A DNA stretch of 64,000 nucleotides from a virus (taxonomy: Duplodnaviria; Caudoviricetes): IMG/VR virus record IMGVR_UViG_3300032038_000027, positions 51,744 to 115,743 of that record, one strand, 5' to 3'. The position numbers and the translations under genes are program-made. The notes beneath the pieces are model-generated. The model had not been told where the DNA came from. It did not search any database and was given only the letters and a program-made list of their open reading frames with translations. Positions 44,129 through 63,886 of this stretch are shown here, piece by piece. The number at the start of each line of letters is the position of its first letter. Positions within the stretch are counted from its first letter, which is position 1.

Positions 44129-45070
44129 CTATTGGATTTTTACATTTATGTAATCAAGCACATTTTTCATTCCTAAACCACCGTCATTCCAATCTCTCAT
44201 ACAATACTCCCATAACTTCGGATGCGTTTCATGTAATCTTTGAAATCTATTAGGTTCTTTTTCAAGATGACATCCAAAGCCGCAGAAAACACAGCCCGTT
44301 CTATCACAGCCGGTCGTATATAGTTTGCCGTTTTCATCTTCCTTGATTTCGCTGTAAACAGAAGCATAGGGAATGTTGTAATTGCGGAGATATTGCAATA
44401 CGTCTTGCTCAGTCCAAAAGCTCATAGGGCGGGAAGTTGGACGTTTACTATTAAAAGCATTACAACCATACATTAACCAGTTAGACTTTCTCTGCACTGA
44501 TTCTTCTGTCATAGTTGCGATAATTGGAACTTTACCAGTTTCTTTTTCATACTGTTTGGCAGGATTCTTTTTCATCACATCACAGCATTTATCAGAAATA
44601 AGAAATGGAGCATCAACTAAATATTTATGACATTCCGAAATTTTACCACGACCATATTTATTGCCATTCCAACGAATATCTTTTAGCTTTTCAGATTTTG
44701 TAGTTCGATATTCTTGAATAAAAGCCGCTTGTTCTTTTCCTATAATGGGATAGCCATATGTTTCGATAACTTTTCTGAAATTCATCTTTGGTTTAAGTCG
44801 AATAACATTTTCTTGACTTAACGCAAATTCCCTTACTTCTGGATATTCCAATCCCGTATCGACAAATACCGCAGGAATATTTGGTCTTAATTGTCTGGCA
44901 ATATGTAATAATACTGTGCTGTCCTTACCTCCGCTAAACGAAACATAAGCATCATATTCTCTTAACCATTCTCTAATTCTGTTTGTTGTTAGACCAATCT
45001 TGACATTTAAAGGCATTGATTGAAAATACTTTAAATGCTCTGCGGTAAAACTTGAATTAGATTTTTTATT
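44129..45070 (-). CDS. PAPS-reductase-family (PP-loop) protein; native start lies on the flipped segment (predicted OFF)
   Basis: SFSGGKDS, VDTGLEY, CC, RTGCVFC. The frame is open to 45076 but closed by TAA at 45077-45079, and there is no SD-preceded start. Confidence 0.85.
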   Translation of the reverse strand, partial: NKKSNSSFTAEHLKYFQSMPLNVKIGLTTNRIREWLREYDAYVSFSGGKDSTVLLHIARQLRPNIPAVFVDTGLEYPEVREFALSQENVIRLKPKMNFRKVIETYGYPIIGKEQAAFIQEYRTTKSEKLKDIRWNGNKYGRGKISECHKYLVDAPFLISDKCCDVMKKNPAKQYEKETGKVPIIATMTEESVQRKSNWLMYGCNAFNSKRPTSRPMSFWTEQDVLQYLRNYNIPYASVYSEIKEDENGKLYTTGCDRTGCVFCGFGCHLEKEPNRFQRLHETHPKLWEYCMRDWNDGGLGMKNVLDYINVKIQ

Positions 45071-45203
45071 TAGATTTTAGTCAAATAAAATACCAATGTT
45101 TCGGTAAATTATTTAGCTGTTATCAATTAGATCATAAAGTGAAAGTTTAATAAGCAGCGAAAGTTAGGTGTTTAATAAATGGAAGAGCCAAATAAAAAAT
45201 CTA
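45058..45203. promoter_or_regulatory. Putative invertible start-codon switch A
   Basis: 14-bp perfect IR at 45058-45071/45190-45203; AGGTG-8nt-ATG GAA GAG CCA on the + strand becomes in frame with the gene after inversion. Confidence 0.8.
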
Positions 45204-45235
45204 TTTGATTGTTAAATTATCGTTCATAAATTTAT

Positions 45236-45445
45236 TTATTTCTTAATTTTTAGTTTTATCGTTTCTGGCACAACTTCGGCAAACCCAATTCCAATATCAT
45301 ATTCATCATCAGATTGACCTTCATAATCATCCACGATAATTTCTCCTATGAATTTTCTACCATCATAATTGTTAATTAAATCGCCTGAGATAGTCTTACC
45401 ATTGTCTTTTCGCTTTCCCGAAAAAATATATTTGGAATTATTCAT
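45236..45445 (-). CDS. YopX-like short protein
   Basis: FSGKRKDNGKTISGDL...EVVPET. Confidence 0.6.
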   Translation of the reverse strand: MNNSKYIFSGKRKDNGKTISGDLINNYDGRKFIGEIIVDDYEGQSDDEYDIGIGFAEVVPETIKLKIKK

Positions 45446-45447
45446 TT

Positions 45448-46125
45448 TTACCTCTTGGCATCTCCAATATCATTCACATAAAAATAAGATTGTGGCGATC
45501 TTGTTAATTTCATTTTAGGACAATCTTCACCGCTAAAATCATATCCACATACCATCATATTCTCACAATAATCAAACATATATGCGTCACATGATTTGCA
45601 AGGTCGCTTATCTTCGTCATAATTCCAATACTTAGAAAATTCTCCAAGCTCTTTTGGTTTATCATAAATAATAAGATTTGTAATGTGCCAAAGGTAAACG
45701 TCATTACGGTTGTTATATCTCATGATTTCACCAAGCGACATACAAATTCTAAGTAATGGTGTTGTAAAATCTACAAATAATCCAGAAGCATTTGGGTCTA
45801 ACCAATCTGTTCGATCACATATAAACTCGCCGATAACTTTCCCATTAAGAAAATTATCTTTGTTCCATTGGTTAGGAAACCGAGCTAACTCAATAGATGA
45901 ACCATATTTGATTTCGCCGTTTGGTAATCTGTATAATTCATCTGTATAAAGCGAAACATCTGAATTGTAATTTTTAGGTTTAGAGCAATATATATAGCAC
46001 TTGAATGGTGGCTTTATTTTTGGAATTGTTTTCTTAACTTCCTCGGTTTTCTCTCCATCAATAATTTTTGCACACAATTTTGGGTTTATATTGATTAGTA
46101 TAGCTTTACCAGAATTTTCGCTCAT
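45448..46125 (-). CDS. ASCH-domain protein
   Basis: ILININP...IIDGEKTEEV, CYIY, GKVIGEF, PQSYFYV. Confidence 0.75.
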   Translation of the reverse strand: MSENSGKAILININPKLCAKIIDGEKTEEVKKTIPKIKPPFKCYIYCSKPKNYNSDVSLYTDELYRLPNGEIKYGSSIELARFPNQWNKDNFLNGKVIGEFICDRTDWLDPNASGLFVDFTTPLLRICMSLGEIMRYNNRNDVYLWHITNLIIYDKPKELGEFSKYWNYDEDKRPCKSCDAYMFDYCENMMVCGYDFSGEDCPKMKLTRSPQSYFYVNDIGDAKR

Positions 46126-46150
46126 TTTAGAATCTCACTTTCCTTGTTAT

Positions 46151-46657
46151 TTATAGTTCAACTTTAAATAAAAGATTTTTTGCAGAATTTAAGATATCTT
46201 CATCTGTAGAAATTCTATGCCAAAAATCAGAAATACTTTCGCAAAAATGTATTTCATCCATTATTCCGACAAATGTTGATACATACCATTCGTCATTAGA
46301 ACTCGGAAACAACTGAAATATCGTATCTTTGCCATTAATAAGCGTAGGAAAATGCTTAAACATAGAAGTCAGAACACGATAAATATAATCCGGCACAGAA
46401 AGAACATCTGCATCATCACCGATATCTTCTATGATGATGTAATTATTATCAGTGCCTTGAAAATAATGTTCTACTACATAGTTCCATTTTGATTCCGGCA
46501 CACTAAAAGTATTACTACCAGAATGTTCTTTTAATTTGCTATACGTCACTTTAAATTCTCGGATTAGTCGCAAATTACATTCAAATTTAATATCATTGAT
46601 TTTGAATTTCATTGAATCTAATTCTTTACTGCTGCTGAGATTCATCATTACCTCCAT
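46151..46657 (-). CDS. Hypothetical protein
   Basis: 168-aa ORF. Confidence 0.5.
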   Translation of the reverse strand: MEVMMNLSSSKELDSMKFKINDIKFECNLRLIREFKVTYSKLKEHSGSNTFSVPESKWNYVVEHYFQGTDNNYIIIEDIGDDADVLSVPDYIYRVLTSMFKHFPTLINGKDTIFQLFPSSNDEWYVSTFVGIMDEIHFCESISDFWHRISTDEDILNSAKNLLFKVEL

Positions 46658-46994
46658 CGGGTTCGTTCAGCAGCTTGCCGTGCAGATCATAAATATCAAG
46701 ATGATCTCTTGATAATAAATCCTCGAATCCTTCATATTTTTCGCTCTTATATGTCGGAACTGGCGTTACATCCGTCCACGATTTGTTCTTTTTAACAATA
46801 ACAATATAATTCATATACACATATACATAATAATCATTATTGTTTAAGACGACCTCTGTTAAGATAAAGTTCTCAGTATCGGGCGCAAGATCAGCACGAA
46901 TCAAACTTTCATTAGCGAATCTTTCATCAACCAAAAGTTCGCACACCTTGTTATAAATACTATTAATGTCATAATCTACTTGAATATTTACCAT
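46626..46994 (-). CDS. Hypothetical protein
   Basis: 122-aa ORF. Confidence 0.5.
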   Translation of the reverse strand: MVNIQVDYDINSIYNKVCELLVDERFANESLIRADLAPDTENFILTEVVLNNNDYYVYVYMNYIVIVKKNKSWTDVTPVPTYKSEKYEGFEDLLSRDHLDIYDLHGKLLNEPDGGNDESQQQ

Positions 46995-47009
46995 TTCAAT
47001 AAATCCACC

Positions 47010-47201
47010 TCAATTCTTTAATGCGGTTAAATAGCTATCATTGGCGAAAAATTCCATATCAGAATTTTCAAATTGAATTACTGCATGATGTTTTGAATAT
47101 CTAATAAAGACACATTTAGATACCAATCCATTTCGATAGGGAGATGAATATAGGCATTGATCTCCGCTTTTAAATTTATTAGGATAATGGATTCTCGACA
47201 T
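47010..47201 (-). CDS. Hypothetical protein
   Basis: 63 aa; similar to the C-terminus of 42082-42471. Confidence 0.55.
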   Translation of the reverse strand: MSRIHYPNKFKSGDQCLYSSPYRNGLVSKCVFIRYSKHHAVIQFENSDMEFFANDSYLTALKN

Positions 47202-47344
47202 TAACCTTTCCTCTTTTTATTCACGATGATAGCAATAATTCCAACAATAAGTTGCAAGATATTCACGACGAGAATTGCGAATGAAAAGTTGCCCAAATAT
47301 GCTTCATTCGCAACATTTCGCAAAAATTGCAAAAATTCCTCCAT
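47201..47344 (-). CDS. Small single-TM protein (47 aa, absent from the ORF track)
   Basis: MEEFLQFLRNVANEAYLGNFSFAILVVNILQLIVGIIAIIVNKKRKG; fills the gap exactly, with a GGGTGA SD. Confidence 0.65.
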   Translation of the reverse strand: MEEFLQFLRNVANEAYLGNFSFAILVVNILQLIVGIIAIIVNKKRKG

Positions 47345-47545
47345 TTAATCACCCTGCTTTACCTGTCGTATTCTGACTATTTCAATTTCTTTAGGTTTAT
47401 ATCTCTTTTTTAATTTCCTTAAAACCTTGCGTCTTGCTCCGGCTTCAGTAAATGCGCGGACGTAAACAGTCCTTTTCTGCGGACGATAAACACCGATATA
47501 ATACAGCATGGTTACAACGGCTCTTACTTTCCATTTCTTAATCAT
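47345..47545 (-). CDS. Basic hypothetical protein
   Basis: 66-aa ORF. Confidence 0.5.
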   Translation of the reverse strand: MIKKWKVRAVVTMLYYIGVYRPQKRTVYVRAFTEAGARRKVLRKLKKRYKPKEIEIVRIRQVKQGD

Positions 47546-47548
47546 AGA

Positions 47549-47827
47549 TCATTCCCATGCAAATAATTGTCCGCATCTTGGACAACGATTATCCCTTGTT
47601 AAACAATTAGCAGCTCGCCCATCTCTAATTCTTCTGCCACAAGCAGGGCAATATCTTTTTAAAGCACTTCCATTCGGAGCAGTAGGAGTATTTTTCGCAA
47701 TCACTTCATCAATGGCTTGAACCAAATTATATGGTAAAGGACATAAAGATTCTTTGGATTTTGATTCTAAGATAACTTTCACATCTTTTAAGCAATCAAG
47801 AAGTTCATAGTCATTCATATATATCAC
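47549..47827 (-). CDS. Zn-ribbon protein
   Basis: CPACG...CPRCGQ. Confidence 0.6.
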   Translation of the reverse strand: MIYMNDYELLDCLKDVKVILESKSKESLCPLPYNLVQAIDEVIAKNTPTAPNGSALKRYCPACGRRIRDGRAANCLTRDNRCPRCGQLFAWE

Positions 47828-48237
47828 TCCTTTTTAAAGGATTTAATTGATACGAATAATCGTTTAATACGTTTTTTAGTCTTTTTAATAAACTGGCGAT
47901 AATTCCTATTCCTATATTCTTTGCGACTATATGTGATGAATCCTTTCTGAGATAACTCAAAATATCTATCAAATGTAGATTTCTTCATCCAACGAAATCT
48001 TTTGGAATTATCTTCAGAAACACATCCAAACTCCCACGCAACATAACGCATAATCCACGCAAAGAATCTTTCAAAAATATTAAGATAAACCCTCATATCA
48101 ACAATATATGTACCTTTAGGAATAAGTTCATCGCACTCAGGTATAAATACCTGTCTTGTGCAAATATATGTGTCATAACAAAACGGACTTTTAATCACAT
48201 AATAAGTTTCGCCACTTGTACTATTTGGATTTATCAT
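47824..48237 (-). CDS. Hypothetical protein
   Basis: 137-aa ORF. Confidence 0.5.
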   Translation of the reverse strand: MINPNSTSGETYYVIKSPFCYDTYICTRQVFIPECDELIPKGTYIVDMRVYLNIFERFFAWIMRYVAWEFGCVSEDNSKRFRWMKKSTFDRYFELSQKGFITYSRKEYRNRNYRQFIKKTKKRIKRLFVSIKSFKKE

Positions 48238-48248
48238 TTTGATCTCCT

Positions 48249-49058
48249 TTAATCGGATTTCTTTAATACTGTATTTGCTGCTTTAGATTTCTTTAATATT
48301 GTATTTGCTGCTTCAGATATTCTTCTTAATGCTATATCATCATATTCAAGATTGTTCTCGATGCCGATGAAATAACGATTTGTATTCACGCACGCTACGC
48401 CAGTTGAACCGCTGCCCATACAATTATCAAGAACTACGTCGCCCGGATTCGTATATGTTTTAATCAAATACTCTAATAAGGCAACTGGCTTTTGAGTTGG
48501 ATGAAATCTACCTCCATCTCTCGGATAACTTAATATACTTAGCGGATTTCGCGCACCGTCCAAAGATTCAGTATAAGCTACTCCCCTATTGCCGTAATTA
48601 TCAGACAATCTACCGTTTTTAGTCTTTTTATACGGCGAGGAATACCATAACTGCTTATTATATATAGGTTTCTTTTTGTAAAAAATCGCAATTTCTTCAT
48701 GGGATTTAAGTGGCTTTACATTGGCGTTTAGAAAATCTGAGCCGCGCTGCTTATCCCAAATCAGATTGTATCGCCATAGCTTAGTATTAGATAACATGAG
48801 ATTTGCCATGAATAAACCATCACAAAATAAAGCGATACAACCGTGTTCTTTAATAATTCTTGTGTAATGCTCCCATAATTTATCGAGCGGAATAACTATG
48901 TCCCATTTATTATGGGTTGTACCATAAGGCAGATCACATAAAATCATGTCTATGGATTCATCTGGTATTGTTTGCATTACATTTAAACAGTCACCAAAAT
49001 GTAATTCATAGTTATACGGGGGGGGTGTTGAAGCTGAATTGTTAAATATTTTTCTCAC
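48249..49058 (-). CDS. N6-adenine/N4-cytosine DNA methyltransferase (beta class), in-frame C8 tract
   Basis: CDLPY, HPTQKP, DNCMGSGSTG; poly-C at 49018-49025. Confidence 0.92.
   Translation of the reverse strand: MRKIFNNSASTPPPYNYELHFGDCLNVMQTIPDESIDMILCDLPYGTTHNKWDIVIPLDKLWEHYTRIIKEHGCIALFCDGLFMANLMLSNTKLWRYNLIWDKQRGSDFLNANVKPLKSHEEIAIFYKKKPIYNKQLWYSSPYKKTKNGRLSDNYGNRGVAYTESLDGARNPLSILSYPRDGGRFHPTQKPVALLEYLIKTYTNPGDVVLDNCMGSGSTGVACVNTNRYFIGIENNLEYDDIALRRISEAANTILKKSKAANTVLKKSD
48256..48313. repeat. 30-bp-period tandem duplication at the MTase 3' end
   Basis: GATTTCTTTAATA(C/T)TGTATTTGCTGCTT twice; encodes AANT(I/V)LKKS twice. Confidence 0.85.
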
Positions 49059-49750
49059 CTTGCTCTTGATTTGTTGCTAAAATACGCTCTTTGGCGATTT
49101 CAAAAGAGTGATCGTCTAATTCAATACCGAAGAATTTTCTGCCAGTTTCCAATGCGGCGATTCCCGTAGTTCCCGAACCCATACAAGGGTCAAAGATCAA
49201 ATCACCAACATTACTATTGTCTAATAGTAATTCTTTACATAAATCGAGATTCTTTTGAGTAGGATGAACCTTATTCCTGCCACACGGATATTCAAAAACT
49301 GTATTCTTACAATTAGCATTAAAAACTGCACCACGTTTTTTAAACCATATAGCGTTTTCAATGCCGGATAAGTAAATGTATTTGCCGTTCATTGGAGAAG
49401 GATTAGTTTTCTTCCAAATTAATTGGCGCACCGTACCTTTATGTTTATCTTGTAAATCTTGAAAGAAATTTTTAATTTCGCTTAATTGATGCTGACCACA
49501 AAATATAATAATTGTGCCAGAAGTAACACGATTGATTTCTTTAAGAAAATCTATTAGACAAAAAGTAGTAATATCTGCATATTCTTTGTTGAGATTTCTC
49601 AAACCGTTATCAGCACGATTGATCTCACCATACGGAATATCTGTTAATGTAACATTTACTGAATCAGATTCCATTTGTTGCAAAACTGTCATGCAATCTG
49701 CATTTAATAATTTTGCGGGGGGGGGTTCTACTGGCTATTGAATTAATCAT
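49042..49750 (-). CDS. Beta-class DNA methyltransferase, frameshifted at a C9 tract (phase-variable, predicted OFF)
   Basis: TDIPY, HPTQK, DPCMGSGTTG. The SD-preceded ATG at 49750 joins the main frame only with C8 or C11 at 49717-49725. Confidence 0.85.
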
Positions 49751-49781
49751 AATCATTCCTATCTTTCAATACAGTAATTAG

Positions 49782-50120
49782 TTATATAAGTTCAATGCCA
49801 CATTTGGGGCAAAATTTCGCTGCCACTAAATCGAATTGTCCCTCAACCTTTGGAGCGGTTGATGTGAATAATAAGCAATTACACTTCGGGCAGAACATCT
49901 TGATAGTTTCGCCATATTTGGAAATTCGCTTTACTGCAATATTATCATTCAATACAGCGGTGTTGATCTTCCTGCGAATATTAAGCATATTGGTGTGGGT
50001 TGTATTGGTTATACGGGTATTGCATTTGATACAATACACACCTGCACGTTTGCCTTCCATTTTTGCATAAACATCTTGACTACCGCAGGATGGACAAGTA
50101 TAAACTATCTCTTTAGCCAT
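49782..50120 (-). CDS. Double Zn-ribbon protein
   Basis: Four CxxC motifs. Confidence 0.6.
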   Translation of the reverse strand: MAKEIVYTCPSCGSQDVYAKMEGKRAGVYCIKCNTRITNTTHTNMLNIRRKINTAVLNDNIAVKRISKYGETIKMFCPKCNCLLFTSTAPKVEGQFDLVAAKFCPKCGIELI

Positions 50121-53547: not shown

Positions 53548-53564
53548 AACTTTCAGTACAGCAA

Positions 53565-54876: not shown

Positions 54877-54917
54877 GTCCTACAGAAGAAAATATCACTA
54901 AATTGAGGTGCGAAATT

Positions 54918-55271
54918 ATGGAAAACATTCTTTACGCTCGTATTAAACAGCTATGTGACGAACGAGGAATAAGCATAAAGAAACTTGAATCTATGCTTGG
55001 TTTTGGTGCATCTTCAATTCAAAAATGGAAAGATTCTACATCTCCATCTATAGATAAAGTAAAACGTGTTGCGACGTTTTTCAATGTTTCTATTGATTAT
55101 CTAACCGGTAGGACAGACATAAGAGAAATAGATTATTTTAAAGAACCTAATGTCGTCACATTCCAACGTGCGCGAGAAAAGATGGATTCAGATACCGAAG
55201 AGCGCATGATGGCTACTTTGCGTGCGGCATTTGGTAATGATTACTTTCCGCAGGAGGATAATAACGAATAA
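54918..55271 (+). CDS. XRE-family HTH repressor (ImmR/CI-like)
   Basis: RIKQLCDERGISIKKLE...SPSIDKV...VSIDYLTG; GAGGTG SD before ATG at 54918. Confidence 0.9.
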   Translation: MENILYARIKQLCDERGISIKKLESMLGFGASSIQKWKDSTSPSIDKVKRVATFFNVSIDYLTGRTDIREIDYFKEPNVVTFQRAREKMDSDTEERMMATLRAAFGNDYFPQEDNNE

Positions 55272-55895: not shown

Positions 55896-55898
55896 GTC

Positions 55899-55940
55899 GC
55901 ATGGTAATGTATATTAAGATATACACTACCATGCTTTTTT
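55899..55940 (+). terminator. Intrinsic terminator between immA-like gene and groEL
   Basis: GCATGGTA-a-TGTATAT-taag-ATATACA-c-TACCATGC followed by T6. Confidence 0.85.
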
Positions 55941-55946
55941 ATTTAA

Positions 55947-57566
55947 TTACTGCGCGGTAGGAATTTGTACAGGCTCTTTTTCATCTGCCACAAGAGTTTC
56001 AGTTGTCAGAATCATACCTGCAACAGACATAGCATTTTCAAGTGCCTTAATAGTCACCTTTGCAGGGTCGATAATGCCACTTTCGAGCATATCAACCATT
56101 TCGCCGCTCGTAACATCGAATCCCATATTGGGGTTGTTTCTTTCAACATTATCGACTTTATATCTAAGAGCGCAACCGGATGGCGATAATCCTGCGTTAT
56201 TGACAATGTTGTTAAAAGGCTCTGAAATTGCAAAAGAAACTGCATCAAAATATTTCTGATCTTCTGATTCAGAATACTTAGCAGCAAGCGGAACAATAGC
56301 GTTCATAAGAGCAATACCGCCGCCCGGAACAATGCCAAACTCGATAGCTGCTCTTGTCGCTGACAGTGCATCTTCAAGACGAAGTTTCTTATCCTTCAAC
56401 TCGATCTCTGTATTTGCACCAACGCGAATAACTGCAACACCATTTGTCATCTTTGCAAGACGTTCCTTGAACTGCTTGCGATCATATTCATTAGTCGCTG
56501 AGTCACAAGCGCAACGAATAGAATTTGCTCTTTCCTCGATATTCTTTGTATCGCCATGACCGCCGATAATAGTAGTGCTTTCCTTTTCAACCTTAACCTT
56601 GTCGGCACTACCAAGATCATCAATAGTGACATCTTTAATTGTATATCCTAACTTAGATGTGAAACACTTAGCGCCAGTTACAACAGCAATATCCTCTAAC
56701 CATGCTTCTCTGTTTTCGCCAAACTTAGGAGGCTTTACGCACACAACATTGATAATGCCTTTCATCTTATTAGTAATAAGAGTACCCGCAACCTCATTAC
56801 TAATTTCATCAGAAATAATTACTAAACTTCTGCCACGCTTTACCGTGCTTTCAAGTAGCGGAAGGATATCAGGAACAGAATTGATTCGAATATCAGAAAC
56901 GAGAATAAGAGGATTATTGTATTCCGCAACCATTTTGTCGGGGTCTGTTACCATATAAGGTGAAATATAGCCCTTGTCAAACTGAATACCCTTTACGATC
57001 TCATGCTTAGTTTCGTTTGTCTGAGAATCATCAACAGTAATCACCAGATCGTTACCAAGTTCACTAATAATATTCGCAATAATTTCGCCAAACTCAGGGT
57101 CACGAGAAGAAATTGTGGCTACCTTTTCAATATCATCACTACCACGCACAGGAATAGCATATGCTCTAATGATAGAGATTACATCTTCAACAACCTTCTC
57201 CATATTTCTCTTAACGATAACGGGATTCTCGCCAGATGCAACTAATTTCATTCCCTGCTCAACAAGAGCTTGTGCAAGCACAATAGCGGTAGTTGTGCCA
57301 TCGCCGGAATCCGTATTTGTTTGTGAAGAAATTTCACTTACGAGCTTTGCACCCATATTTTCAAATTCATCCGGCAAACTAATCTCTTTGGCAATAGTTA
57401 CGCCATCATTAGTGATTAGCGGAAATGTATAAGAGCGATCAAGGGCGACAAATCTTCCCTTTGCGCCAAGTGTTGACTTTACGCAATTTGCAACAATATT
57501 GATTCCCTTAATAAGCGCATTTTTAGCTTCAGCACCCATAAGAATTTTCTTAGCCATTGTCATCAT
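55947..57566 (-). CDS. groEL: Chaperonin GroEL
   Basis: ITNDGVTIAKEI, GDGTTT, FDKGYISPY, GIVPGGG, GIIDPAKV. Confidence 0.97.
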   Translation of the reverse strand: MMTMAKKILMGAEAKNALIKGINIVANCVKSTLGAKGRFVALDRSYTFPLITNDGVTIAKEISLPDEFENMGAKLVSEISSQTNTDSGDGTTTAIVLAQALVEQGMKLVASGENPVIVKRNMEKVVEDVISIIRAYAIPVRGSDDIEKVATISSRDPEFGEIIANIISELGNDLVITVDDSQTNETKHEIVKGIQFDKGYISPYMVTDPDKMVAEYNNPLILVSDIRINSVPDILPLLESTVKRGRSLVIISDEISNEVAGTLITNKMKGIINVVCVKPPKFGENREAWLEDIAVVTGAKCFTSKLGYTIKDVTIDDLGSADKVKVEKESTTIIGGHGDTKNIEERANSIRCACDSATNEYDRKQFKERLAKMTNGVAVIRVGANTEIELKDKKLRLEDALSATRAAIEFGIVPGGGIALMNAIVPLAAKYSESEDQKYFDAVSFAISEPFNNIVNNAGLSPSGCALRYKVDNVERNNPNMGFDVTSGEMVDMLESGIIDPAKVTIKALENAMSVAGMILTTETLVADEKEPVQIPTAQ

Positions 57567-57840
57567 CCTCCGTATTCAGCTTTAAAATAATATCCTTATT
57601 CTTTGCAATATAATACTCTTGTCCATCATACTCAATTCTTAGAGTTTCACGAAAATCAAAAAGCACAATATCGCCAATTTCAAGATTATGATGTTTCTGC
57701 TTATTAACAACTTTCGCAATACAGCGTGTGTCCTTATTGTTAGTAAGAATCAAACTATTTGAGCCATCATGTTCAATTTCACAAGGTAAAAGCAGTAGAT
57801 AATTATTAAACATTTCGCCCTGTTCAATCTTATTATTCAT
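57550..57840 (-). CDS. groES: Divergent co-chaperonin GroES-like
   Basis: 96 aa directly upstream of groEL; IGDIVLF and YDGQEYYI...DII. Confidence 0.65.
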   Translation of the reverse strand: MNNKIEQGEMFNNYLLLLPCEIEHDGSNSLILTNNKDTRCIAKVVNKQKHHNLEIGDIVLFDFRETLRIEYDGQEYYIAKNKDIILKLNTEDDDNG

Positions 57841-57860
57841 CTTTCAATCCCTCTCTTTTA

Positions 57861-58295
57861 TTATTCTGCATCAGTCACAAAACGATAAGGCTTCTTTTCT
57901 ACAATAGGTAAAGCCTTAGTAATGTAATATACAGCGATGTTTTCAACAGCACCTTCAATTTGCTGCTCATTGATTCTATGATCGTACATAATCACATTAG
58001 ATTCAATTTGCATTGACTTTGCTGTAGGCTTTGCAATCGTAATTGTGCCGCCATTTGTGAATCGAATTACATAATAGAGATTACTATTTTTAGCTGTATA
58101 TTCTTGAATTTCATCAATTAACGAAGTAGAAATCTTATTGTAATATTCACTTAATTCATTACAAAGAGCGATTGCCTTTTCACGATCTGCCATAAAGAAC
58201 AGAATTTGATAGTTATGATACATCTGAAGTCTTTTAAGGATTCTATCAATCAAAAAAGTCTGATTATTAATCATTTGTTTCACCTCTCTTCCCAC
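57861..58295 (-). CDS. Hypothetical protein
   Basis: IRFTNGGTITI motif. Confidence 0.5.
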   Translation of the reverse strand: MGREVKQMINNQTFLIDRILKRLQMYHNYQILFFMADREKAIALCNELSEYYNKISTSLIDEIQEYTAKNSNLYYVIRFTNGGTITIAKPTAKSMQIESNVIMYDHRINEQQIEGAVENIAVYYITKALPIVEKKPYRFVTDAE

Positions 58296-59356
58296 GGAAA
58301 ATTATTTGTTCCAAAATGTCCAAATTTAGCTGTTTCATAGAATTTAACATGACCATCATTAAGATGTAAGTCCTTAATCATTCTTTCTGGGGTACATTCT
58401 TCAAGATATTGATATTTATTGATACCAAGAATTGCATTATTTCTGTCACTAATTGCAATATTTTTATCGCTTTGAATATCAATAGATACAGGCTCGGCAA
58501 TACCAATAGCATAAGATAGTTGAACTTGCACCCAATTCAAATCTTCATTACGGTTTAAAACATCAATGGCGATCTGTCGTGCCTTATAAGCTGCGGAACG
58601 ATCAACCTTAGTCGCATCTTTACCGGAGAAAGCACCGCCACCAATCGGCGCAAATGAATGATAATTGTCTACACATAGCTTTCTGCCAGTTAATCCCGCA
58701 TCGCCATCAAAACCACCAATCAGAAATTTGCCAGTAGGATTGATATGAAAATTCTCAATAGAGATATAAAATTGATGACATAAACTACGGCAAAAATCTA
58801 TTAGAATCTGATCTGTTTCTTTGCGTTCAACTTCTGTATTTTGATATGAGATAATAAAATCTTTAATGTAGCGCAATTTGTTATTTTCATCATAACAACC
58901 GACAATCTGTGCTTTACCATCTGGTAAAAATCTTGAATCTGATCGTCGCAAGGAATCATAATACATTGAAAGTATCTGAAGAATATTCATAGCAAGTGGA
59001 ATATTATTTTGCGTATCTCTACAAGCAAATCCGAACATCATTCCTTGATCTCCTGCACCGCCGATATCCACACCTTGTGCAATATCGGGAGATTGTTTAC
59101 CAATGTTATTGATTACAGCATATTCTCTTGTATAACCCACATCTTGTAAGACTTTTCTTACAACTTCTTGGATATTAACATTAGCGGTTGATGTAACTTC
59201 GCCAGTTACGAAAATCACACCTTTGCCGCCAACTACTTCGATTCCGCAGCGACTATTGCGATCTTTCGCCAAATAAGCGTCAAGAATAGCATCGCTAATC
59301 TGATCGCAAACTTTATCCGGGTGTCCTCTAAAAACTATCTCATTACTATATAGCAT
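58280..59356 (-). CDS. metK: S-adenosylmethionine synthetase
   Basis: GHPDKVCDQISD, GAGDQG, PDGKAQ, GLTGRK, GGGAFSGKD.TKVDRS. Confidence 0.97.
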   Translation of the reverse strand: MLYSNEIVFRGHPDKVCDQISDAILDAYLAKDRNSRCGIEVVGGKGVIFVTGEVTSTANVNIQEVVRKVLQDVGYTREYAVINNIGKQSPDIAQGVDIGGAGDQGMMFGFACRDTQNNIPLAMNILQILSMYYDSLRRSDSRFLPDGKAQIVGCYDENNKLRYIKDFIISYQNTEVERKETDQILIDFCRSLCHQFYISIENFHINPTGKFLIGGFDGDAGLTGRKLCVDNYHSFAPIGGGAFSGKDATKVDRSAAYKARQIAIDVLNRNEDLNWVQVQLSYAIGIAEPVSIDIQSDKNIAISDRNNAILGINKYQYLEECTPERMIKDLHLNDGHVKFYETAKFGHFGTNNFPWEER

Positions 59357-60275
59357 TTGGTTTTATATCCTTTTCAATATATAATTTGTATTTTCGTATT
59401 ACATCTTCAAAAAATCTATTCCATTCGCTATCTTTAAGATCATATATGCCTTTTGACTTTAATAAATCCGAGCGAAGAAAACTCCTTCTCAAAGAATCAA
59501 CCATATGGGATTTACATATAGGATATACTTTTGCAAAATTTCTGAACACTATCCATGCTTCGTTCCGCAAAACTACATCTCCCCAAGCATCATCATAAAT
59601 AAATTTCTTGTGTTTCTCTTTAATTTCAGGGAAATATTTACTTATGATAACGCTTAACGGTGCGCCAATATCTTCAACCGGAGGTCTAAAAGATTGCGAG
59701 AAGAAATCACGGTGTTTAAGCCATAGATCGTTATCTTTAATAAAACATTGAAATTTCGCACGATCACCAAGCCAACTAACAGAAAACGATGGTTTTATAC
59801 CTTTTAATTCAAATGGCTTTTCAAGTTTTGGTTCACCATAAATACGATATGAATAAATTTCACAGATCATAGGCTCTAAAAAGTATTTTTCATATACTTC
59901 GCGCAAATTATCGGACACAGTTACAATATCAAATGTAACAGGAAAATTTAACTTACCATACGGCACGACTTGATAATCTACTCTATCGAGATATTCACAA
60001 TCATCCATACTATCACGGTAAAATCTAACGATTATTGAAAAATCGCTTGTTTCACATTGTCGCCATTCTCGCCAACCGTCTTTTCGTTTCTCGACCTTAA
60101 TAGGATAGGATTTGTCGCGCATTAAGTTTATATATGTCAGATAAGTCTTATCGGTATAAGGCTCTATTTTTATGATCTTTTCGGACGGGAAATATTTCGC
60201 AGCTTCTTCTTTAGTATCAGCATATATCTTTGGCTGATAATCTCTACCATCAAGGGTTAATATCCAACGGTTCAT
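59346..60275 (-). CDS. Hypothetical protein
   Basis: Long ORF; likely start MNRW at 60275 after an AGGAG SD. Confidence 0.55.
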   Translation of the reverse strand: MNRWILTLDGRDYQPKIYADTKEEAAKYFPSEKIIKIEPYTDKTYLTYINLMRDKSYPIKVEKRKDGWREWRQCETSDFSIIVRFYRDSMDDCEYLDRVDYQVVPYGKLNFPVTFDIVTVSDNLREVYEKYFLEPMICEIYSYRIYGEPKLEKPFELKGIKPSFSVSWLGDRAKFQCFIKDNDLWLKHRDFFSQSFRPPVEDIGAPLSVIISKYFPEIKEKHKKFIYDDAWGDVVLRNEAWIVFRNFAKVYPICKSHMVDSLRRSFLRSDLLKSKGIYDLKDSEWNRFFEDVIRKYKLYIEKDIKPNAI

Positions 60276-60633
60276 TTTCGCTCCTATTATAATATGGCAC
60301 AAGACAAGGAGTATACGTTTTACAATCAACATGATTAGAATGTAAAAGCGCATTAATTCGCAACCCGGTTGCAACCCAATCCTTATTCAAAACTAATGTG
60401 ATCTTGCTCTGATTGCTGAAAAATATATGTCCTTGTTCATGTCTATGAACAAATTTCACATTAGGGATTTGGCGACAACATTCGCGCAATTCTTTAATAC
60501 TTGCAAATACCACCAATGCTTGAAAGCGAGGATAAGTGCAACAATAAAATATAATCTCACCCATTGTATCGAAAGAATACTTTTTATGAATCGGATTAAG
60601 ATATGTATTACCCAAAGAAGCCTCCGAACGCAA
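60250..60633 (-). CDS. Hypothetical protein
   Basis: IFFSNQSKITL...GLRIN; start uncertain. Confidence 0.45.
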   Translation of the reverse strand: MRSEASLGNTYLNPIHKKYSFDTMGEIIFYCCTYPRFQALVVFASIKELRECCRQIPNVKFVHRHEQGHIFFSNQSKITLVLNKDWVATGLRINALLHSNHVDCKTYTPCLVPYYNRSENEPLDINP

Positions 60634-60766
60634 GCAGCGCTACCTGTATGCCAACACTAATCAACGCTCCCCAAAAATTATTCTTCGTTTCTTTACCGTG
60701 TAGATATGCGTTTGCACATAAACTTAATCCCATAAGAACAATCCAAATAATTTGGCACACACCCAT
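60608..60766 (-). CDS. Small two-TM protein (52 aa, absent from the ORF track)
   Basis: MGVCQIIWIVLMGLSLCANAYLHGKETKNNFWGALISVGIQVALLAFGGFFG after a GAGGTGA SD. Confidence 0.7.
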   Translation of the reverse strand: MGVCQIIWIVLMGLSLCANAYLHGKETKNNFWGALISVGIQVALLAFGGFFG

Positions 60767-60767
60767 G

Positions 60768-61166
60768 TTAATCACCTCTGCTTTCAAACATCACTTGATG
60801 ATGCTCCTTAATTTGTGGAAAATCGGACTTTAACATCGCTTTTAATTCGGCAACTAATCCCTTTAAATATGCCTTTGTTAAGCCGCTAAAAACATATTCA
60901 CATATATATTTCTTATCCGCAGAACCGCCAAACATGATACACAGATCAAGTTTATTACCCCAATCAATAACTCCATCTATGACTTTTTTGTGTTCATTAT
61001 ATATTTTAGCGGTTGCCTCATTAAGTGCTTCGGTCAATAATTCTGATTTATCGAGATCATTATAATATACTGTATCGTTTGCCTCATTAAGTGCTTCTGA
61101 TTTATCGGGAACATTATTTGAATCGACAATATCCGATTTAAGTATAAACATTCCTTTAACCATCAT
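60768..61166 (-). CDS. Hypothetical protein with internal duplication
   Basis: DKSE and EALNEA are each repeated. Confidence 0.5.
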   Translation of the reverse strand: MMVKGMFILKSDIVDSNNVPDKSEALNEANDTVYYNDLDKSELLTEALNEATAKIYNEHKKVIDGVIDWGNKLDLCIMFGGSADKKYICEYVFSGLTKAYLKGLVAELKAMLKSDFPQIKEHHQVMFESRGD

Positions 61167-62100
61167 TTCTTATCAGACCTTTCAAAATATGTTTGATAAC
61201 TTCAATACACCAACCATCGCCGCACATATTATAAATATGACTATCTGCAAAATCCATTTTATACCACTCAGGTATCGTTTGTAATTTACGATATTCATGC
61301 GGTGTGAGTTTGCGACATCTGCCGTGATCGTATACTTTCTTTTGCAAATTCCCGCCACGACAAGCTGTCAATGTTGGTGATTTATAATTAGGATTGTTGA
61401 CACGTTTTAAGATATCGTGTCCATTAATATGTAATATAGCGCAAACTTTTTTGCCATCATAATAATCATAGCTTTGCGTATAATAATATTTTTCATCTAC
61501 ATCTGAATCCATAATATCGCGCAAAACTAATGAACAATTATCCGGCAACTTATTTATAGGAATGTTTGTCCAATAATTTCTCGCCCGATCTTGTGCGGAA
61601 AATAAATTTGCGTTTATTAAAATGGGTTCAACTCCTAATATTTTGCTCATTTCATGAATATCATCTTTGCGATTACTATCCACGTTTTCTACGAGAAAAT
61701 AAACCATAGAATTATTATTTATTTGAATCCATTTAAGAATCTTAGCGCATGAGTAGAATAAACTTGATGAACCTTTTAATCCATTATTATATTCTGATCT
61801 ACCCATTGTAACTTTAGATAATGATCGACACGGACTGCCGAACATCACCAAATCAATTCTTGGTAAACTTTGTAACATATTATCAGTAATTTTCGTTACA
61901 TCTCCAAGCTGTATGGTGTTCGGAAAATTATCTTGTGTGCATTTTATCGCAACTTTATCAATTTCACTCGCATAATAATTATTGATCTTAAACCCTAATT
62001 CGGTTAATGCAATTTGACCGCAACTCATTCCATCACACAAACTAAGCACATTTAATCCTTCATCGCCAAATAAAGTGTTGTTTTTATCTTTTAATTCTAT
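61156..62100 (-). CDS. C5-cytosine DNA methyltransferase (switch B, predicted ON)
   Basis: VLSLCDG, FGSPC, LVENV, QDRAR, GDGW. Frame extends to ATA at 62100 after a GGTGA SD; GTG at 62049 is an alternative start. Confidence 0.9.
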   Translation of the reverse strand: MELKDKNNTLFGDEGLNVLSLCDGMSCGQIALTELGFKINNYYASEIDKVAIKCTQDNFPNTIQLGDVTKITDNMLQSLPRIDLVMFGSPCRSLSKVTMGRSEYNNGLKGSSSLFYSCAKILKWIQINNNSMVYFLVENVDSNRKDDIHEMSKILGVEPILINANLFSAQDRARNYWTNIPINKLPDNCSLVLRDIMDSDVDEKYYYTQSYDYYDGKKVCAILHINGHDILKRVNNPNYKSPTLTACRGGNLQKKVYDHGRCRKLTPHEYRKLQTIPEWYKMDFADSHIYNMCGDGWCIEVIKHILKGLIRNDG

Positions 62101-62220
62101 TTTAAGTCACCAAACTTTCGAATGTTAATTTCATATTATATGATGGTTAATTGTTGATAATTCAATATAACTCCGCAATATAAGGGCTTTCTTAACAAAA
62201 TTCGCACAATAAAAACAACA
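62076..62220. promoter_or_regulatory. Putative invertible start-codon switch B
   Basis: 12-bp perfect IR at 62076-62087/62209-62220. The current orientation supplies SD+ATA; the flipped one gives an in-frame TAA (62193-62195). Confidence 0.7.
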
Positions 62221-62225
62221 TTTGC

Positions 62226-63752
62226 TTAATGAAACATATTTTTCATTAAATGCGCAATTACCTCTACAGTCCAACCGTTGCCTAAACATTTATAAGCCTG
62301 TGAATCACTAATCACGCTAAAATCATACCATTCCGGCACAGTCTGTAATCTCTTACATTCACTCACCGTTAATTTTCTGATTATGTAAAAACCATCTGCT
62401 AATTTAATAGGATAGGTTTTACCTTTAATTTCAATCATACCGTTCTCTACGGTATGAACAACATAAGTTTTACCATCTGCTGACGATACAGCTTTAATTG
62501 GTTTATCGTTTTCAAACTTAACTGGAATAGCATAAAGTCCAGTATTAGAACCAATCCCACCACTATTGGATTGTTGCGTTACTGATTTACCATTTATACT
62601 ATAAATTCTGTTGCCTTGCCCACCGTTTCCTATTTCACCGATTTTATGAGATGTAAGTAATTTATCATGTTCAATATTTTCATTTACTGGTTCAATTACA
62701 CCTTCATAACCGCGACCATGAATAATATTTTCTTCAAGATTTCTTCCATTACCGATTTTATAATATGTAGCTCTTAAACAACTTGATTTATCTTTACATC
62801 TCGTAGTAACCGGCTCAGCAACCATCCTGCGTGCAGCGACAGATGTTAAAGCAGCAGACTTATTATCTGTTTTAGCTTCATATCTGCGGTCATACGTTCC
62901 ATCAGATTGTTTCTTTCTGCCGTATACTTGTTCTTGTACAGCTACAGGTTCGGCAACACCACTTGCTCCGTAGGTAGAAGTATATTTGCAAATATTCGCA
63001 ATACTTGTTTGCTGATATTGTGCTTTAATTGTTTGAGATTTGCCATCCTTAGTAGTATTCACAGGTTCAAATGTCATTTGACCTTGATTTTTCTTAAAAT
63101 ATTCTCGCGTAGTAGTTCTCCCGATACTGCTAATAATTGCGCGAGATTTATCACGATTAACTACGCCATCAAGAACATCTCGTAATAATATTCCCCTATC
63201 TTCCGGTTGCGGAATATCAGCTTTTCTATATGTGCCATCATCATTTCTGATTCCGCACCAATAATATCTATTGCGATTTTGTGCCGATACTAAAGCGGAA
63301 TTTATTAAAATAGGTTCAAATCCGAATGTATTTGAAATACTTTCGTAAATAGCTTTTGCCATTGACTTATTGTTTTCATAAATAAAGTATTTAGGTTTAG
63401 CTTCTTTCAATGCTCTAACATATTGACTGAATAATTCCCAACCTAAACCACTTGCTTCAGTTTCGCGGCGATCATTCTTTTGAGCGATTGACCAATATGT
63501 GCAAGGGCTGCCGCCAATTAAGAAATCAATATTTTCATATTGAGTGAAATCCGCGTCAAATACATCACCATTTTGCTCGATCTCAGGGAAATTATGCTGT
63601 GTAACAGCGATCGCATACTTGTCGATCTCATAAGCGGAATATTTTGCAACGTTAATGCCGCTGCTCATGAACGCCAACATTCCGCAAGCCATGCCGTCAA
63701 ATAGGCTCAGAACTGAAACTCCGTCATTTGCGGATAAATCAGTGTTTTTATT
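62226..63752 (-). CDS. C5-cytosine DNA methyltransferase with extended multi-segment variable region (switch C, predicted OFF)
   Basis: VLSLFDGM, GGSPC, IYENN, QNRNR, LGNGW. The frame is closed by TAA at 63753-63755 with no SD-supported start before motif I. Confidence 0.9.
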   Translation of the reverse strand, partial: NKNTDLSANDGVSVLSLFDGMACGMLAFMSSGINVAKYSAYEIDKYAIAVTQHNFPEIEQNGDVFDADFTQYENIDFLIGGSPCTYWSIAQKNDRRETEASGLGWELFSQYVRALKEAKPKYFIYENNKSMAKAIYESISNTFGFEPILINSALVSAQNRNRYYWCGIRNDDGTYRKADIPQPEDRGILLRDVLDGVVNRDKSRAIISSIGRTTTREYFKKNQGQMTFEPVNTTKDGKSQTIKAQYQQTSIANICKYTSTYGASGVAEPVAVQEQVYGRKKQSDGTYDRRYEAKTDNKSAALTSVAARRMVAEPVTTRCKDKSSCLRATYYKIGNGRNLEENIIHGRGYEGVIEPVNENIEHDKLLTSHKIGEIGNGGQGNRIYSINGKSVTQQSNSGGIGSNTGLYAIPVKFENDKPIKAVSSADGKTYVVHTVENGMIEIKGKTYPIKLADGFYIIRKLTVSECKRLQTVPEWYDFSVISDSQAYKCLGNGWTVEVIAHLMKNMFH

Positions 63753-63886
63753 TTAAATTCCGGTACTTTAAATGCCCAATAATTGAGAATTTATAATTCG
63801 CTGTTTATCTTAGATATTTTAACAACGACATAAAAACATATAGAAAGGTGGGTGTTTCACAATAGATTTAGCCAATAAAAACACTG
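63740..63886. promoter_or_regulatory. Putative invertible start-codon switch C
   Basis: 13-bp perfect IR at 63740-63752/63874-63886; GAAAGGTGGGTG-7nt-ATA GAT TTA GCC on the + strand becomes in frame after inversion. Confidence 0.78.

Follow-up and report, generated by a model that had tools for sequence, protein, structure and literature searches.

Three homologous segments at the 5′ ends of phage genes

A large phage of gut or rumen origin has three homologous segments of 145–147 bp, one at the 5′ end of a PAPS-reductase-like gene and one at the 5′ end of each of two C5 methyltransferase genes. Each segment is bounded by perfect inverted repeats of 12–14 nt (N5-TTTTTAT ... ATAAAAA-N5). This raises the question whether these segments can invert and thereby switch the genes on and off. 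The DNA analyzed here is a stretch of 64,000 nt, referred to as the window, which belongs to a record of 115.7 kb that is 74% complete according to CheckV. An earlier note, made without database searches, had placed three perfect inverted-repeat pairs in the window, and both their positions and their perfection were confirmed (Table 1).

With a profile of the cassette interior, matches in the 115,743-bp genome were obtained at these three places only (E 5e-26 to 1.5e-28). On the plus strand the profile matched cassettes 1 and 3, and on the minus strand cassette 2, with all three downstream genes on the minus strand. A single 12-nt inverted repeat spanning 100–200 bp is not rare (∼1.9 per simulated genome). 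The scan for further ATAAAAA-N5 pairs that the earlier note had suggested was run on the 115,743 bp and yielded three pairs in total, compared with ∼0.003 motif-constrained pairs expected from arithmetic on the half-site counts. The earlier observation of these cassettes therefore holds.

Table 1. Positions of the cassettes, their start signals, the genes behind them and further features in the window.
Feature	Position	Strand	Description
Tyrosine recombinase A	10051–11205	−	384 aa, integrase type, arm-binding N-terminal region
PAPS-reductase-like (PP-loop) gene	44129–45070 (44132–45070 in the PF01507 assignment)	−	PF01507 PAPS_reduct
Cassette 1	45058–45203		146 bp; arms 45058–45071 and 45190–45203 (14 nt); OFF in window
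Start signals, cassette 1	AGGTG 45166–45170; ATG 45179	+	directed away from gene
C8 tract	49018–49025	−	within the 5′ coding part of the adjacent N6/N4 methyltransferase gene (48249–49058); in frame now
C9 tract	49717–49725	−	between AGGA + ATG (49750) and N6/N4 methyltransferase frame (49045–49692)
C5 DNA methyltransferase 1	61156–62100 (61159–62100 in the PF00145 assignment)	−	PF00145; 314 aa read from ATA of cassette 2
Cassette 2	62076–62220		145 bp; arms 62076–62087 and 62209–62220 (12 nt); ON in window
Start signals, cassette 2	GGTG 62111–62108; ATA 62100–62098	−	
C5 DNA methyltransferase 2	62226–63752 (62229–63752 in the PF00145 assignment)	−	PF00145
Cassette 3	63740–63886		147 bp; arms 63740–63752 and 63874–63886 (13 nt); OFF in window
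Start signals, cassette 3	AGGTGGGTG 63846–63854; ATA 63862–63864	+	

Start signals and coding arms

Each cassette contains a GGTG-type ribosome-binding site and a start codon, which share the frame of the gene in one orientation only, and the gene-proximal arm is itself coding (N/D-K-K/N). In the OFF orientation a TAA is found in frame ahead of the repeat, without an alternative reading frame. The sequence therefore predicts that expression depends on orientation, with an in-frame start one way and a stop before the arm the other way. This effect on expression is inferred, and the long and short products reported by gene callers agree with it. The earlier claim that the start codon lies exactly four codons before the arm held only in part, as it applies to the window, whereas in relatives the distance is two to six codons, always in frame. 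The start codons claimed for cassettes 2 and 3 had to be corrected, since both are the non-canonical ATA. ATA is normally a very weak initiator, and because of it the ON state of these two cassettes may mean low expression. The ATA starts and an internal GTG start of methyltransferase 1 are caveats that had been given too little weight earlier.

The first codons of the PAPS-reductase-like gene (N-K-K-S) are the gene-proximal arm, and a TAA three codons upstream closes the frame; the sole alternative is an internal ATG without a ribosome-binding site. That this protein has a role in DNA modification is inferred from its gene neighbors only. In methyltransferase 1, an alternative start (AAGGA-6 nt-GTG) was identified at 62049, just ahead of motif I, and it is possible that this protein is translated in either state of its cassette. 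The native start of methyltransferase 2 (MKVLSLFDG in orthologs) is lost in the window (GTT TCA), and its first ATG (63692) falls within the SAM-binding motif I. As inferred from the sequence, methyltransferase 2 and the PAPS-reductase-like gene are left without any usable alternative start. Where orthologs lack a cassette, their genes begin with an ATG behind an ordinary ribosome-binding site.

Orientation differs between close relatives

At the PAPS locus, contig L325 carries the ON orientation, whereas contig L326 and the window are OFF. L325 and L326 have the repeat TAGATTTTTTAT in common and are 93.3% identical in the gene flank, but their interiors reach 89.4% identity only after one of them is reverse-complemented and 53% otherwise. 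At the methyltransferase 1 locus, the window is ON, whereas in a JGI relative the overlapping contigs L329 and L330 rebuild the entire cassette 2 in the OFF orientation. Here the flank of the window and L330 is 95% identical, and the interior 88.7% when flipped versus 54% when not. In a third pair, L331/L332 (protein P0255, OFF) carries in reverse both the start and the leader MSDIKDKRNI, and the related protein P0254 (ON) opens with the matching MSDIKDKRNIL... The breakpoints lie within the repeats and the flanks are unchanged, and at two loci orientation differs between lineages that are just 5–7% apart. These comparisons show that close relatives differ by an inversion placed precisely at the repeats, and that an in-frame start is conserved.

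The earlier note had held that a lack of relatives with the opposite orientation would refute its reading. Cassettes 1 and 2 passed this examination, and cassette 3 was seen only as OFF, in three assemblies; in L329 it has the same OFF state with the ATA conserved. On three contigs of JGI sample 3300041728 the states are OFF/OFF/OFF, and the sole other assembly of the window phage is identical to it, OFF/ON/OFF. Both forms are present in protein databases. Protein P0007 begins with MEEPNKKSNSSFTAEHLKY and up to residue 19 equals the product predicted for cassette 1 in the ON state, while P0003, P0004, P0013, P0014, and P0032 begin at the internal MPL.

A family of cassettes in related phages

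At least 13 distinct cassettes of 135–157 bp could be identified in the window and in related phages of 95–170 kb (G001–G003, G005, G008, G010, L165, L325, L328, and L331), 10 of them in relatives. The start codon is in frame in every cassette examined; in 12 it lies two to six codons ahead of the arm, the exception being G005, whose cassette carries ∼31 codons. The arms are perfect in all of them, whereas the interiors drift to 50–70% identity and diverge faster than the genes. Start signals nevertheless stay intact in OFF cassettes, and GGTG-N7-ATA is conserved in cassettes 2 and 3 of the JGI relative. Among orthologs of the PAPS locus the arms co-vary (TAGAT, TTGAT, TAGAA, and CAGAT), both arms having changed each time.

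Candidate recombinases

The earlier note had reported no dedicated invertase in the window. As a correction, a tyrosine recombinase of integrase type, recombinase A, is encoded in it (Table 1), adjoining a tRNA-Cys gene (11537–11611). The search for a second tyrosine recombinase, suggested by the same note, identified the Xer-like recombinase B outside the window. These two were the only recombinases found, and both are of the tyrosine type. No serine recombinase (PF00239, PF07508) or IS110-type enzyme was detected in the 115.7-kb record (74% complete), and no serine recombinase among the called genes of a further 21 kb of the ENA contig. Recombinase B is common to every large genome with a cassette. 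It is also present in G004 and G009, where no cassette was found (G006 was not scanned), and is therefore not specific to the switch. An invertase role can only be inferred; recombinase B is the best candidate for it and recombinase A is less likely.

Homopolymer tracts in further modification genes

Two poly-C tracts were observed near the 5′ ends of neighboring N6/N4 methyltransferase genes of the window (Table 1). The C9 tract puts the frame of the first gene out of register, and a C8 tract would join its ATG to that frame. In L318, the ortholog of methyltransferase 1 (77% identical) has no cassette; instead, a G7 tract separates its ATG from motif I. It is inferred from the sequence that these poly-C and poly-G tracts are independent phase-variation devices acting on the same gene class, which supports the reading of the cassettes as switches.

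Proposed mechanism

Combining these results, it is likely that each of the three segments is a site-specific invertible switch, or mini-inverton, and that the phage switches the genes behind them on and off one by one. This is inferred from the flipped orientations in relatives. Flipping within one population, its rate, the enzyme behind it, any change in expression and any benefit are likewise only inferred. Each segment carries a Shine-Dalgarno sequence and a start codon followed by two to six leader codons. In the ON orientation these would be fused in frame to the gene via the coding arm, and in the OFF orientation they would face away and leave an in-frame stop ahead of the arm. The earlier claim that invertible cassettes give or remove start signals is supported by the relatives flipped at cassettes 1 and 2. 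Because the operons are tightly packed and co-directional and the cassettes show no evident promoter, translation initiation is the most likely point of action. The claim of action at the level of translation and not of the promoter fits this packing and the lack of a promoter excess in the ON direction, and remains unproven.

The putative recombination site can be written as AAW-N5-YTTTTAT, in which short A/T-tract half-sites would flank a locus-specific 5-mer. Such sites would fit a simple tyrosine recombinase that needs a matched crossover region in both partner sites, and this matching would confine each cassette to recombination with itself, so that the loci may switch independently. Independent flipping, as claimed earlier, fits the mixed states (OFF/ON/OFF in the window and OFF/OFF/OFF in JGI sample 3300041728). 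That a tyrosine recombinase does the flipping, and that matching locus-specific cores permit independence, are both still inferences. Together with the two poly-C tracts, the cassettes would give a phage population mixed DNA-modification states, which may be read as bet-hedging in the face of hosts that possess restriction enzymes or modification-dependent restriction.

A bolder joint reading, judged slightly less likely than not, is that of a combinatorial, phase-variable DNA-modification program run by one phage tyrosine recombinase and widely used for bet-hedging. If true, three invertons and two poly-C tracts would make five independent switches with up to 32 states. One simple phage tyrosine recombinase would read AAW-N5-YTTTTAT, with the locus-specific spacers blocking cross-recombination, and the system would be widespread in phages of ∼95–170 kb from gut and rumen Clostridia. 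It would hedge against restriction-modification and modification-dependent restriction alike.

Alternative explanations

The cassettes could also hold a promoter and act mainly on transcription, as in the classical promoter invertons fimS and mpl of Mycoplasma penetrans. This is possible but less likely, and it would modify the main reading without excluding it. A size of 135–157 bp and 12-nt locus-specific repeats resemble mpl (PMC3047005), and in L004, a non-invertible relative, a perfect TTGACA-17-TATAAT precedes the ribosome-binding site, the ATG and the leader MNCNSNKK. However, in 15 cassettes the best promoter-like (sigma-70-like) matches in the ON direction did not surpass those on the reverse strand (the promoter type of the host is unknown), promoter scans of the window did not rise above shuffled controls, and the upstream genes are co-directional and lie 5–32 nt from the cassettes, with no terminator-like sites found. 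That inversion happened only as a rare evolutionary accident, or that the switches have become inactive, with other starts in use or the OFF genes decaying, is unlikely. Such a view is favored by the absence of evidence within a population, by the same states in the other assembly of the window phage, by the plausible internal GTG of methyltransferase 1 and by ATA being a poor start. Against it stand the arms, which stay perfect and co-vary despite the drift of the interiors, the intact in-frame start signals of OFF cassettes, the two loci that differ in orientation at 5–7% divergence, and the lack of a usable alternative start in methyltransferase 2 and the PAPS-reductase-like gene.

Small non-autonomous mobile (MITE-like) elements or integron attC-like sites, inserted either way upstream of genes, would account for scattered family members that are alike in size and have a common 7-mer in their terminal inverted repeats. 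This explanation is very improbable, and both candidates were rejected. Only the 7-mer is common; because the outer 5-mers are locus-specific and inverted, not direct, they do not qualify as a terminal repeat common to the family or as a target-site duplication. For insertion, every lineage would have to offer a 10-bp palindromic target at the same codon, and cassette-free orthologs lack such a target. Moreover, orthologous cassettes keep one locus while their arms co-vary, and the start codon is always in frame. Self-complementarity is limited to the terminal 12–14 nt, unlike in attC sites, and recombinase B scored 37.8 bits with the XerA/integron-integrase model, whose cut-off is 220. A structured RNA element of the operon transcript, for example a long-range stem or a regulatory leader, is practically ruled out as a substitute for a DNA switch. 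The 12–14-nt arms could pair in RNA, but homologous cassettes take opposite orientations relative to their genes, in this one genome as well as among orthologs, which contradicts this explanation because a cis-acting RNA cannot tolerate reversal, and no Rfam match was obtained. A serine-invertase switch (Hin/Gin/Cin/Mpi type) was rejected, as the 115.7-kb record (74% complete) has no PF00239 match, and so was a gene-altering inversion or shufflon, as the OFF orientation brings a stop codon and no alternative frame, and the cassettes hold only two to six leader codons.

Comparison with known systems

The mpl promoter invertons of M. penetrans (Horino et al., 2009, as described in PMC3047005) resemble the phage cassettes in being many and small, one per gene, in an AT-rich genome, with 12-bp inverted repeats that differ between loci, and their independent flipping is thought to be due to one tyrosine recombinase (MYPE2900). 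They carry promoters for bacterial surface lipoprotein genes, whereas the phage cassettes have no evident promoter, have one coding arm, supply ribosome-binding site, start and leader, and target DNA modification. In vsa of Mycoplasma pulmonis and mba/UU172 of Ureaplasma parvum (PMC3047005) the recombination site likewise lies in the 5′ coding region, but one expression site is moved among several gene bodies, resulting in antigenic variation, while each phage gene has a private ON/OFF cassette and no alternative partner. Partial intergenic invertons (Chanin et al., PMC10028968) and gene-altering programmed inversions (Milman et al., PMC9881135) also have one repeat in the gene and one outside, and DNA methyltransferases and restriction-modification specificity genes are favored targets of inversion there. 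Most of the described cases exchange alternative coding modules over long stretches in a shufflon-like manner, in bacterial chromosomes and in phage tail fibers, whereas the phage cassettes of ∼146 bp have no alternative module and would toggle initiation.

Among the RecV switches of Clostridioides difficile (cwpV, flgB, cmrRST, and pdcB; PMC2784873, PMC5386303, PMC9286219), one tyrosine recombinase serves several small switches with differing repeats in a Clostridia host lineage, and some act after transcription initiation. They differ in being chromosomal, in lying in 5′ untranslated regions and in working via promoters or terminators, and none is known to carry a start codon. Phasevarions (bioRxiv 10.1101/2020.06.18.137471) likewise involve ON/OFF DNA methyltransferases that yield mixed methylation, and the phage too has repeat tracts of this kind, poly-C in two other methyltransferase genes and, in an ortholog, poly-G. 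Phasevarions, however, rely on repeat slippage instead of inversion, and those described concern restriction-modification methyltransferases of bacteria. A phage-encoded DNA inversion switch is also found in the G segment of Mu (Gin) and the C segment of P1 (Cin). Gin and Cin are serine invertases that flip segments of 3–4 kb and swap tail-fiber C-termini, whereas in the record of the cassette-bearing phage the recombinases found are not of the serine type.

Structure of the three cassettes

The window is the final 64 kb of the IMG/VR record (G000), which is linear, 115,743 bp long, has a G+C content of 34% and is 74% complete according to CheckV. Contig k141_2455051 (58 kb) of ENA assembly ERZ27256903 showed 100% identity across the region and continues 35 kb beyond the window end, and no close relative of G000 was found among the INPHARED phages. 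An earlier note had described three cassettes bounded by perfect inverted repeats, in the states OFF, ON and OFF (ON meaning that the ribosome-binding site and start codon of the cassette are in frame with the gene behind it), and this was confirmed by repeat, profile and start-signal checks.

The interiors between the repeat arms are homologous, as a profile of the three cassettes matched these three loci (E 5e-26 to 1.5e-28) and nothing else in the genome; the matches are on the + strand for cassettes 1 and 3 and on the - strand for cassette 2. The downstream genes, encoding a PF01507 PAPS-reductase-family protein (cassette 1) and two PF00145 C5 methyltransferases (methyltransferase 1 behind cassette 2, methyltransferase 2 behind cassette 3), are all located on the - strand, so that the start signals of cassette 2 face its gene, to which it offers GGTG-7 nt-ATA-GAA-TTA-AAA. 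The start signals of cassette 1 (AGGTG-8 nt-ATG) and cassette 3 (AGGTGGGTG-7 nt-ATA) are directed away from their genes, and in both cassettes an in-frame TAA lies ahead of the coding repeat arm.

One 12-nt inverted repeat at such spacing is not unusual, with 1.9 ± 1.3 expected by chance per genome in a first-order Markov simulation. G000 contains exactly three copies of the motif-constrained pair N5-YTTTTAT ... ATAAAAR-N5 versus ∼0.003 expected, a value that is our own arithmetic based on half-site counts of 66 and 60; the genome-wide scan for further pairs proposed in the earlier note returned only the three known ones. No Rfam match was obtained on the cassettes. A perfect 14-nt inverted repeat at window positions 38765-38952 (188 bp apart), across the junction of two reading frames, was rejected as a family member. 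Since this repeat and those adjoining the gene of recombinase B in the related phage genome G004 lie in coding sequence without the motif, they are likely due to chance.

Location and properties of cassettes, recombinases and homopolymer tracts
Feature	Location	Strand	Properties
Cassette 1	window 45058-45203		146 bp, perfect inverted repeats, arms 14 nt
Cassette 2	window 62076-62220		145 bp, perfect inverted repeats, arms 12 nt
Cassette 3	window 63740-63886		147 bp, perfect inverted repeats, arms 13 nt
Cassette at orthologous PAPS locus	G001		OFF
Cassette at orthologous PAPS locus	G002		ON
Cassette at orthologous PAPS locus	G003		ON
Cassettes ahead of C5-methyltransferase-like gene	G005, G008, G010		gene without motif I at N-terminus
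Further cassettes	L165, L328, L331
Tyrosine recombinase A	window 10051-11205		384 aa, integrase type, beside tRNA-Cys
Tyrosine recombinase B	G000 29947-30999		350 aa, Xer-like, two domains, in structural gene block
C9 tract	window 49717-49725	-	AGGA and ATG (49750) out of frame with methyltransferase
C8 tract	window 49018-49025	-	in frame, next N6/N4 methyltransferase

Some other features of the region were observed. A stretch of ∼150 nt on the upstream side of cassette 3 (window 63890-64000, continuing into L156:10958-11114) resembles a tRNA with an insertion, with a D-arm-like start GGAATAGGTAGAC and a T-arm-like end GGTGCGAATCCTCACC; neither ARAGORN nor Rfam gave a call on this stretch. On the ENA contig past the window end (L317:1700-7100), a Thg1-like gene is found together with eight tRNA genes (Gln, Ser x2, Glu, Lys, Leu x2, Pro). 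They are located upstream of cassette 3 at a distance of 13-19 kb, in a region absent from the IMG/VR record. Outside the window, G000 1389-1700 contains an array of AT-rich repeats of ∼35 nt (TATTATATATAATA) in direct and inverted orientation, which could be an iteron region or an origin.

Related phages carry flipped alleles

The opposite orientation in relatives, which the earlier note had named as its own test, was found for cassettes 1 and 2; cassette 3 was OFF in all three assemblies examined. In a protein search, close homologs of the PAPS reductase came as long forms and as short forms of 294-305 aa. The long form, for example P0007, starts with MEEPNKKSNSSFTAEHLKY, the exact product predicted from a flipped cassette 1, and the short forms (P0003, P0004, P0013, P0014, P0032) begin at an internal MPL. 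At the DNA level, the cassette of the PAPS locus is ON in contig L325 (Logan SRR29188440) and OFF in L326 (JGI 3300041728). Both have the identical repeat TAGATTTTTTAT and their gene flanks are 93.3% identical, while their interiors reach 89.4% identity with one copy reverse-complemented and otherwise only 53%.

For cassette 2, the JGI contigs L329 and L330, overlapping by 37 nt, reconstruct a cassette opposite to the window orientation, with 95% identity to the window in the gene flank and 88.7% in the flipped versus 54% in the unflipped interior. A third ON/OFF pair was identified in a sister lineage of methyltransferase 1, in which protein P0254 begins with MSDIKDKRNIL, and the contigs L331/L332, encoding the truncated P0255, contain a 138-bp cassette with the same start and leader MSDIKDKRNI, reversed. 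These flipped alleles between relatives show that the invertible cassette family is real; switching within one population is not demonstrated and the enzyme is unidentified.

Separately, five PAPS-reductase homologs (P0057, P0073, P0103, P0116, P0119) have unrelated N-termini of ∼25 aa until the conserved YISFSGGKDS, which hints that the 5′ region of this gene family may have undergone other rearrangements or inversions of larger size.

The cassette family and its start codons

An nhmmer profile of the three cassettes had no significant match among 113 related loci, and the family was therefore sought in relatives by a repeat motif scan, which located members of 135-157 bp. The seven genomes that were scanned first (∼680 kb) contained eight motif pairs, all of them perfect. 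Exact-pattern scans of viral and metagenome contigs revealed no near-identical relatives or further members, and none of 80 PAPS-reductase loci on GTDB genome contigs had a cassette; these contigs suggest that the hosts of the relatives are likely Clostridia (Oscillospiraceae, Ruminococcus).

In every cassette found, the start codon is in frame with the arm and the gene beyond, and lies 2-6 codons ahead of the arm in all but G005, whose cassette has ∼31 codons. It is mostly ATG; L326 has GTG, G008 has TTG, and cassettes 2 and 3, like their JGI counterparts, have ATA. The interiors diverge faster than the flanking genes, while OFF cassettes retain intact start signals and GGTG-N7-ATA is kept in both JGI cassettes, which suggests that the switches are still in use and that ATA is the real, though probably weak, initiator of cassettes 2 and 3. 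From such starts a low output is inferred.

Cassette-free orthologs have an ordinary ribosome-binding site and ATG with a short N-terminus (MEKEKKYT..., MKVLSLFDG, MNVLSLCDG). In the window these native starts are lost (TTA-AAT-GTG in methyltransferase 1, GTT-TCA in methyltransferase 2). Methyltransferase 1 has AAGGA-6 nt-GTG one codon ahead of LSLCDG, conserved in the JGI relative, and could possibly be made in both cassette states via this internal GTG.

The C5-methyltransferase-like gene behind cassettes of relatives (G008 26400-27300, G005 62393-62770, G010 139064-139300; loci L135, L151, L339) begins with G(F/Y)ELVNFCE. In the G008 gene, motif X is followed downstream by the motif I stretch CFSGIGAFE, which suggests a possible circular permutation of this enzyme. 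In G005, the copy continues into a TnpB-like C-terminus (CKKCG...DINAAINIL).

Control of translation or transcription

The genes upstream of the cassettes are co-directional and end only 5-32 nt away, no terminator-like sites could be identified between them and the cassettes, and the OFF orientation showed no consistent terminator (by inspection only). The rival possibility is that the cassettes carry a promoter and control transcription. It gained no support from the promoter scans, in which promoter-like matches across 15 cassettes scored no higher for the ON direction than for the reverse. A promoter is kept as a live sub-hypothesis, since a perfect TTGACA-17-TATAAT precedes a similar MNCNSNKK leader in L004, a non-invertible relative. 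Based on the close, co-directional upstream genes and the absence of terminators and of a promoter excess in the ON direction, control of translation initiation is favoured, an inference from sequence without expression data.

At L004:2900-3010 (IMGVR_UViG_3300029305_001531, G010), the methyltransferase 2 relative has a fixed promoter, ribosome-binding site and ATG. Its leader includes the ATAAAAA motif and there is no distal repeat; it might represent a locked-ON or ancestral form.

Proposed recombination sites and candidate enzymes

The 5-mer of the PAPS locus varies among orthologs (TAGAT, TTGAT, TAGAA, CAGAT), always with the same change in both arms. Such co-variation would be expected if partner sites must match, or from gene conversion during recombination. 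When all 26 cassette ends were written outside-to-inside, the flank adjoining the repeat was nearly always A-A-(A/T/G), so that the site reads AAW-N5-YTTTTAT. The site would consist of inverted A/T-tract half-sites surrounding the locus-specific 5-mer. In the core sites of Cre, Flp and Xer, binding elements flank a crossover region whose sequence has to match between partners. By analogy, the layout resembles simple tyrosine-recombinase core sites, which does not prove the enzyme class.

The earlier note had seen no dedicated invertase in the window. Tyrosine recombinase A is encoded there, although a link to the switches is not established, and the second tyrosine recombinase that the note had suggested looking for was found outside the window (recombinase B). 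Orthologs of B are present in every large relative. These comprise G003, G005, G008 and G010, all with cassettes (in G005, B is the sole recombinase found), G004 and G009, where no cassette was found, and G006, which was not scanned for cassettes. B therefore belongs to the core genes of this phage group as a whole, fails as a switch-specific enzyme and is at best a moonlighting invertase; no sequence relative was found in the PDB. No serine or IS110-type recombinase was detected in G000 (74% complete), and in the ENA assembly the 21 kb that follow the contig end had neither a recombinase among called genes nor an additional cassette, yielding tRNA genes only. Possibly, the invertase is a host enzyme or is encoded in the quarter of the genome that the record lacks.

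Other putative switches and the modification genes

Homopolymer tracts occur near the 5′ ends of two N6/N4 methyltransferase genes that lie side by side in the window. C8 in place of C9 in the first tract would fuse the start to the methyltransferase, giving a 235-aa protein, and both tracts look like slippage-type phase switches, as inferred from their sequence. A methyltransferase 1 ortholog with 77% identity and without cassette (L318:2430-2520, IMGVR_UViG_3300031760_003956) is one base out of frame, with a G7 tract located after the ribosome-binding site and ATG (MNNILNKKVGG) and before motif I. As orthologous genes have a cassette or a G7 tract at the same position, it is argued that variable expression is itself a trait under selection.

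The PAPS-reductase-like protein had no specific equivalog match, and its role in DNA modification rests only on its neighbours, among them N6/N4 methyltransferases and an AAA_28 protein, with SAM synthetase further along the operon. In the operon downstream of the methyltransferases (window 56768-61166, via L155/L156) SAM synthetase (PF00438, PF02772, PF02773) and a Cpn60 chaperonin are encoded; the phage may provide its own methyl donor.

Significance and comparison with known systems

Phase-variable methyltransferases are known as a bacterial strategy, and inversion switches of phages have been described for tail fibres. In the present case, ON/OFF switching appears to be used by a phage on its own DNA-modification genes. 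The device is unusually compact, moving a translation start and not a promoter or protein module, and it recurs at several loci, each with a private crossover sequence. If the switches are active, this would explain how one lineage keeps differently modified virions ready for hosts that differ in their restriction or modification-dependent defences. Gene callers truncate OFF alleles, resulting in many 295-aa ‘PAPS reductases’ and seemingly start-less methyltransferases, and metagenome assemblies give only one arbitrary switch state. Once the enzyme is identified, the short sites with locus-specific spacers might serve as orthogonal recombination targets.

In the literature searched, which did not cover all journals, no description of start-codon-bearing mini-invertons on phage DNA-modification genes was found. 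Among the nearest described systems are the RecV switches of C. difficile, the ‘partial intergenic’ invertons (PMC10028968, PMC9881135) and the mpl invertons of M. penetrans (PMC3047005), which have 12-bp repeats that are different at each locus and one tyrosine recombinase.
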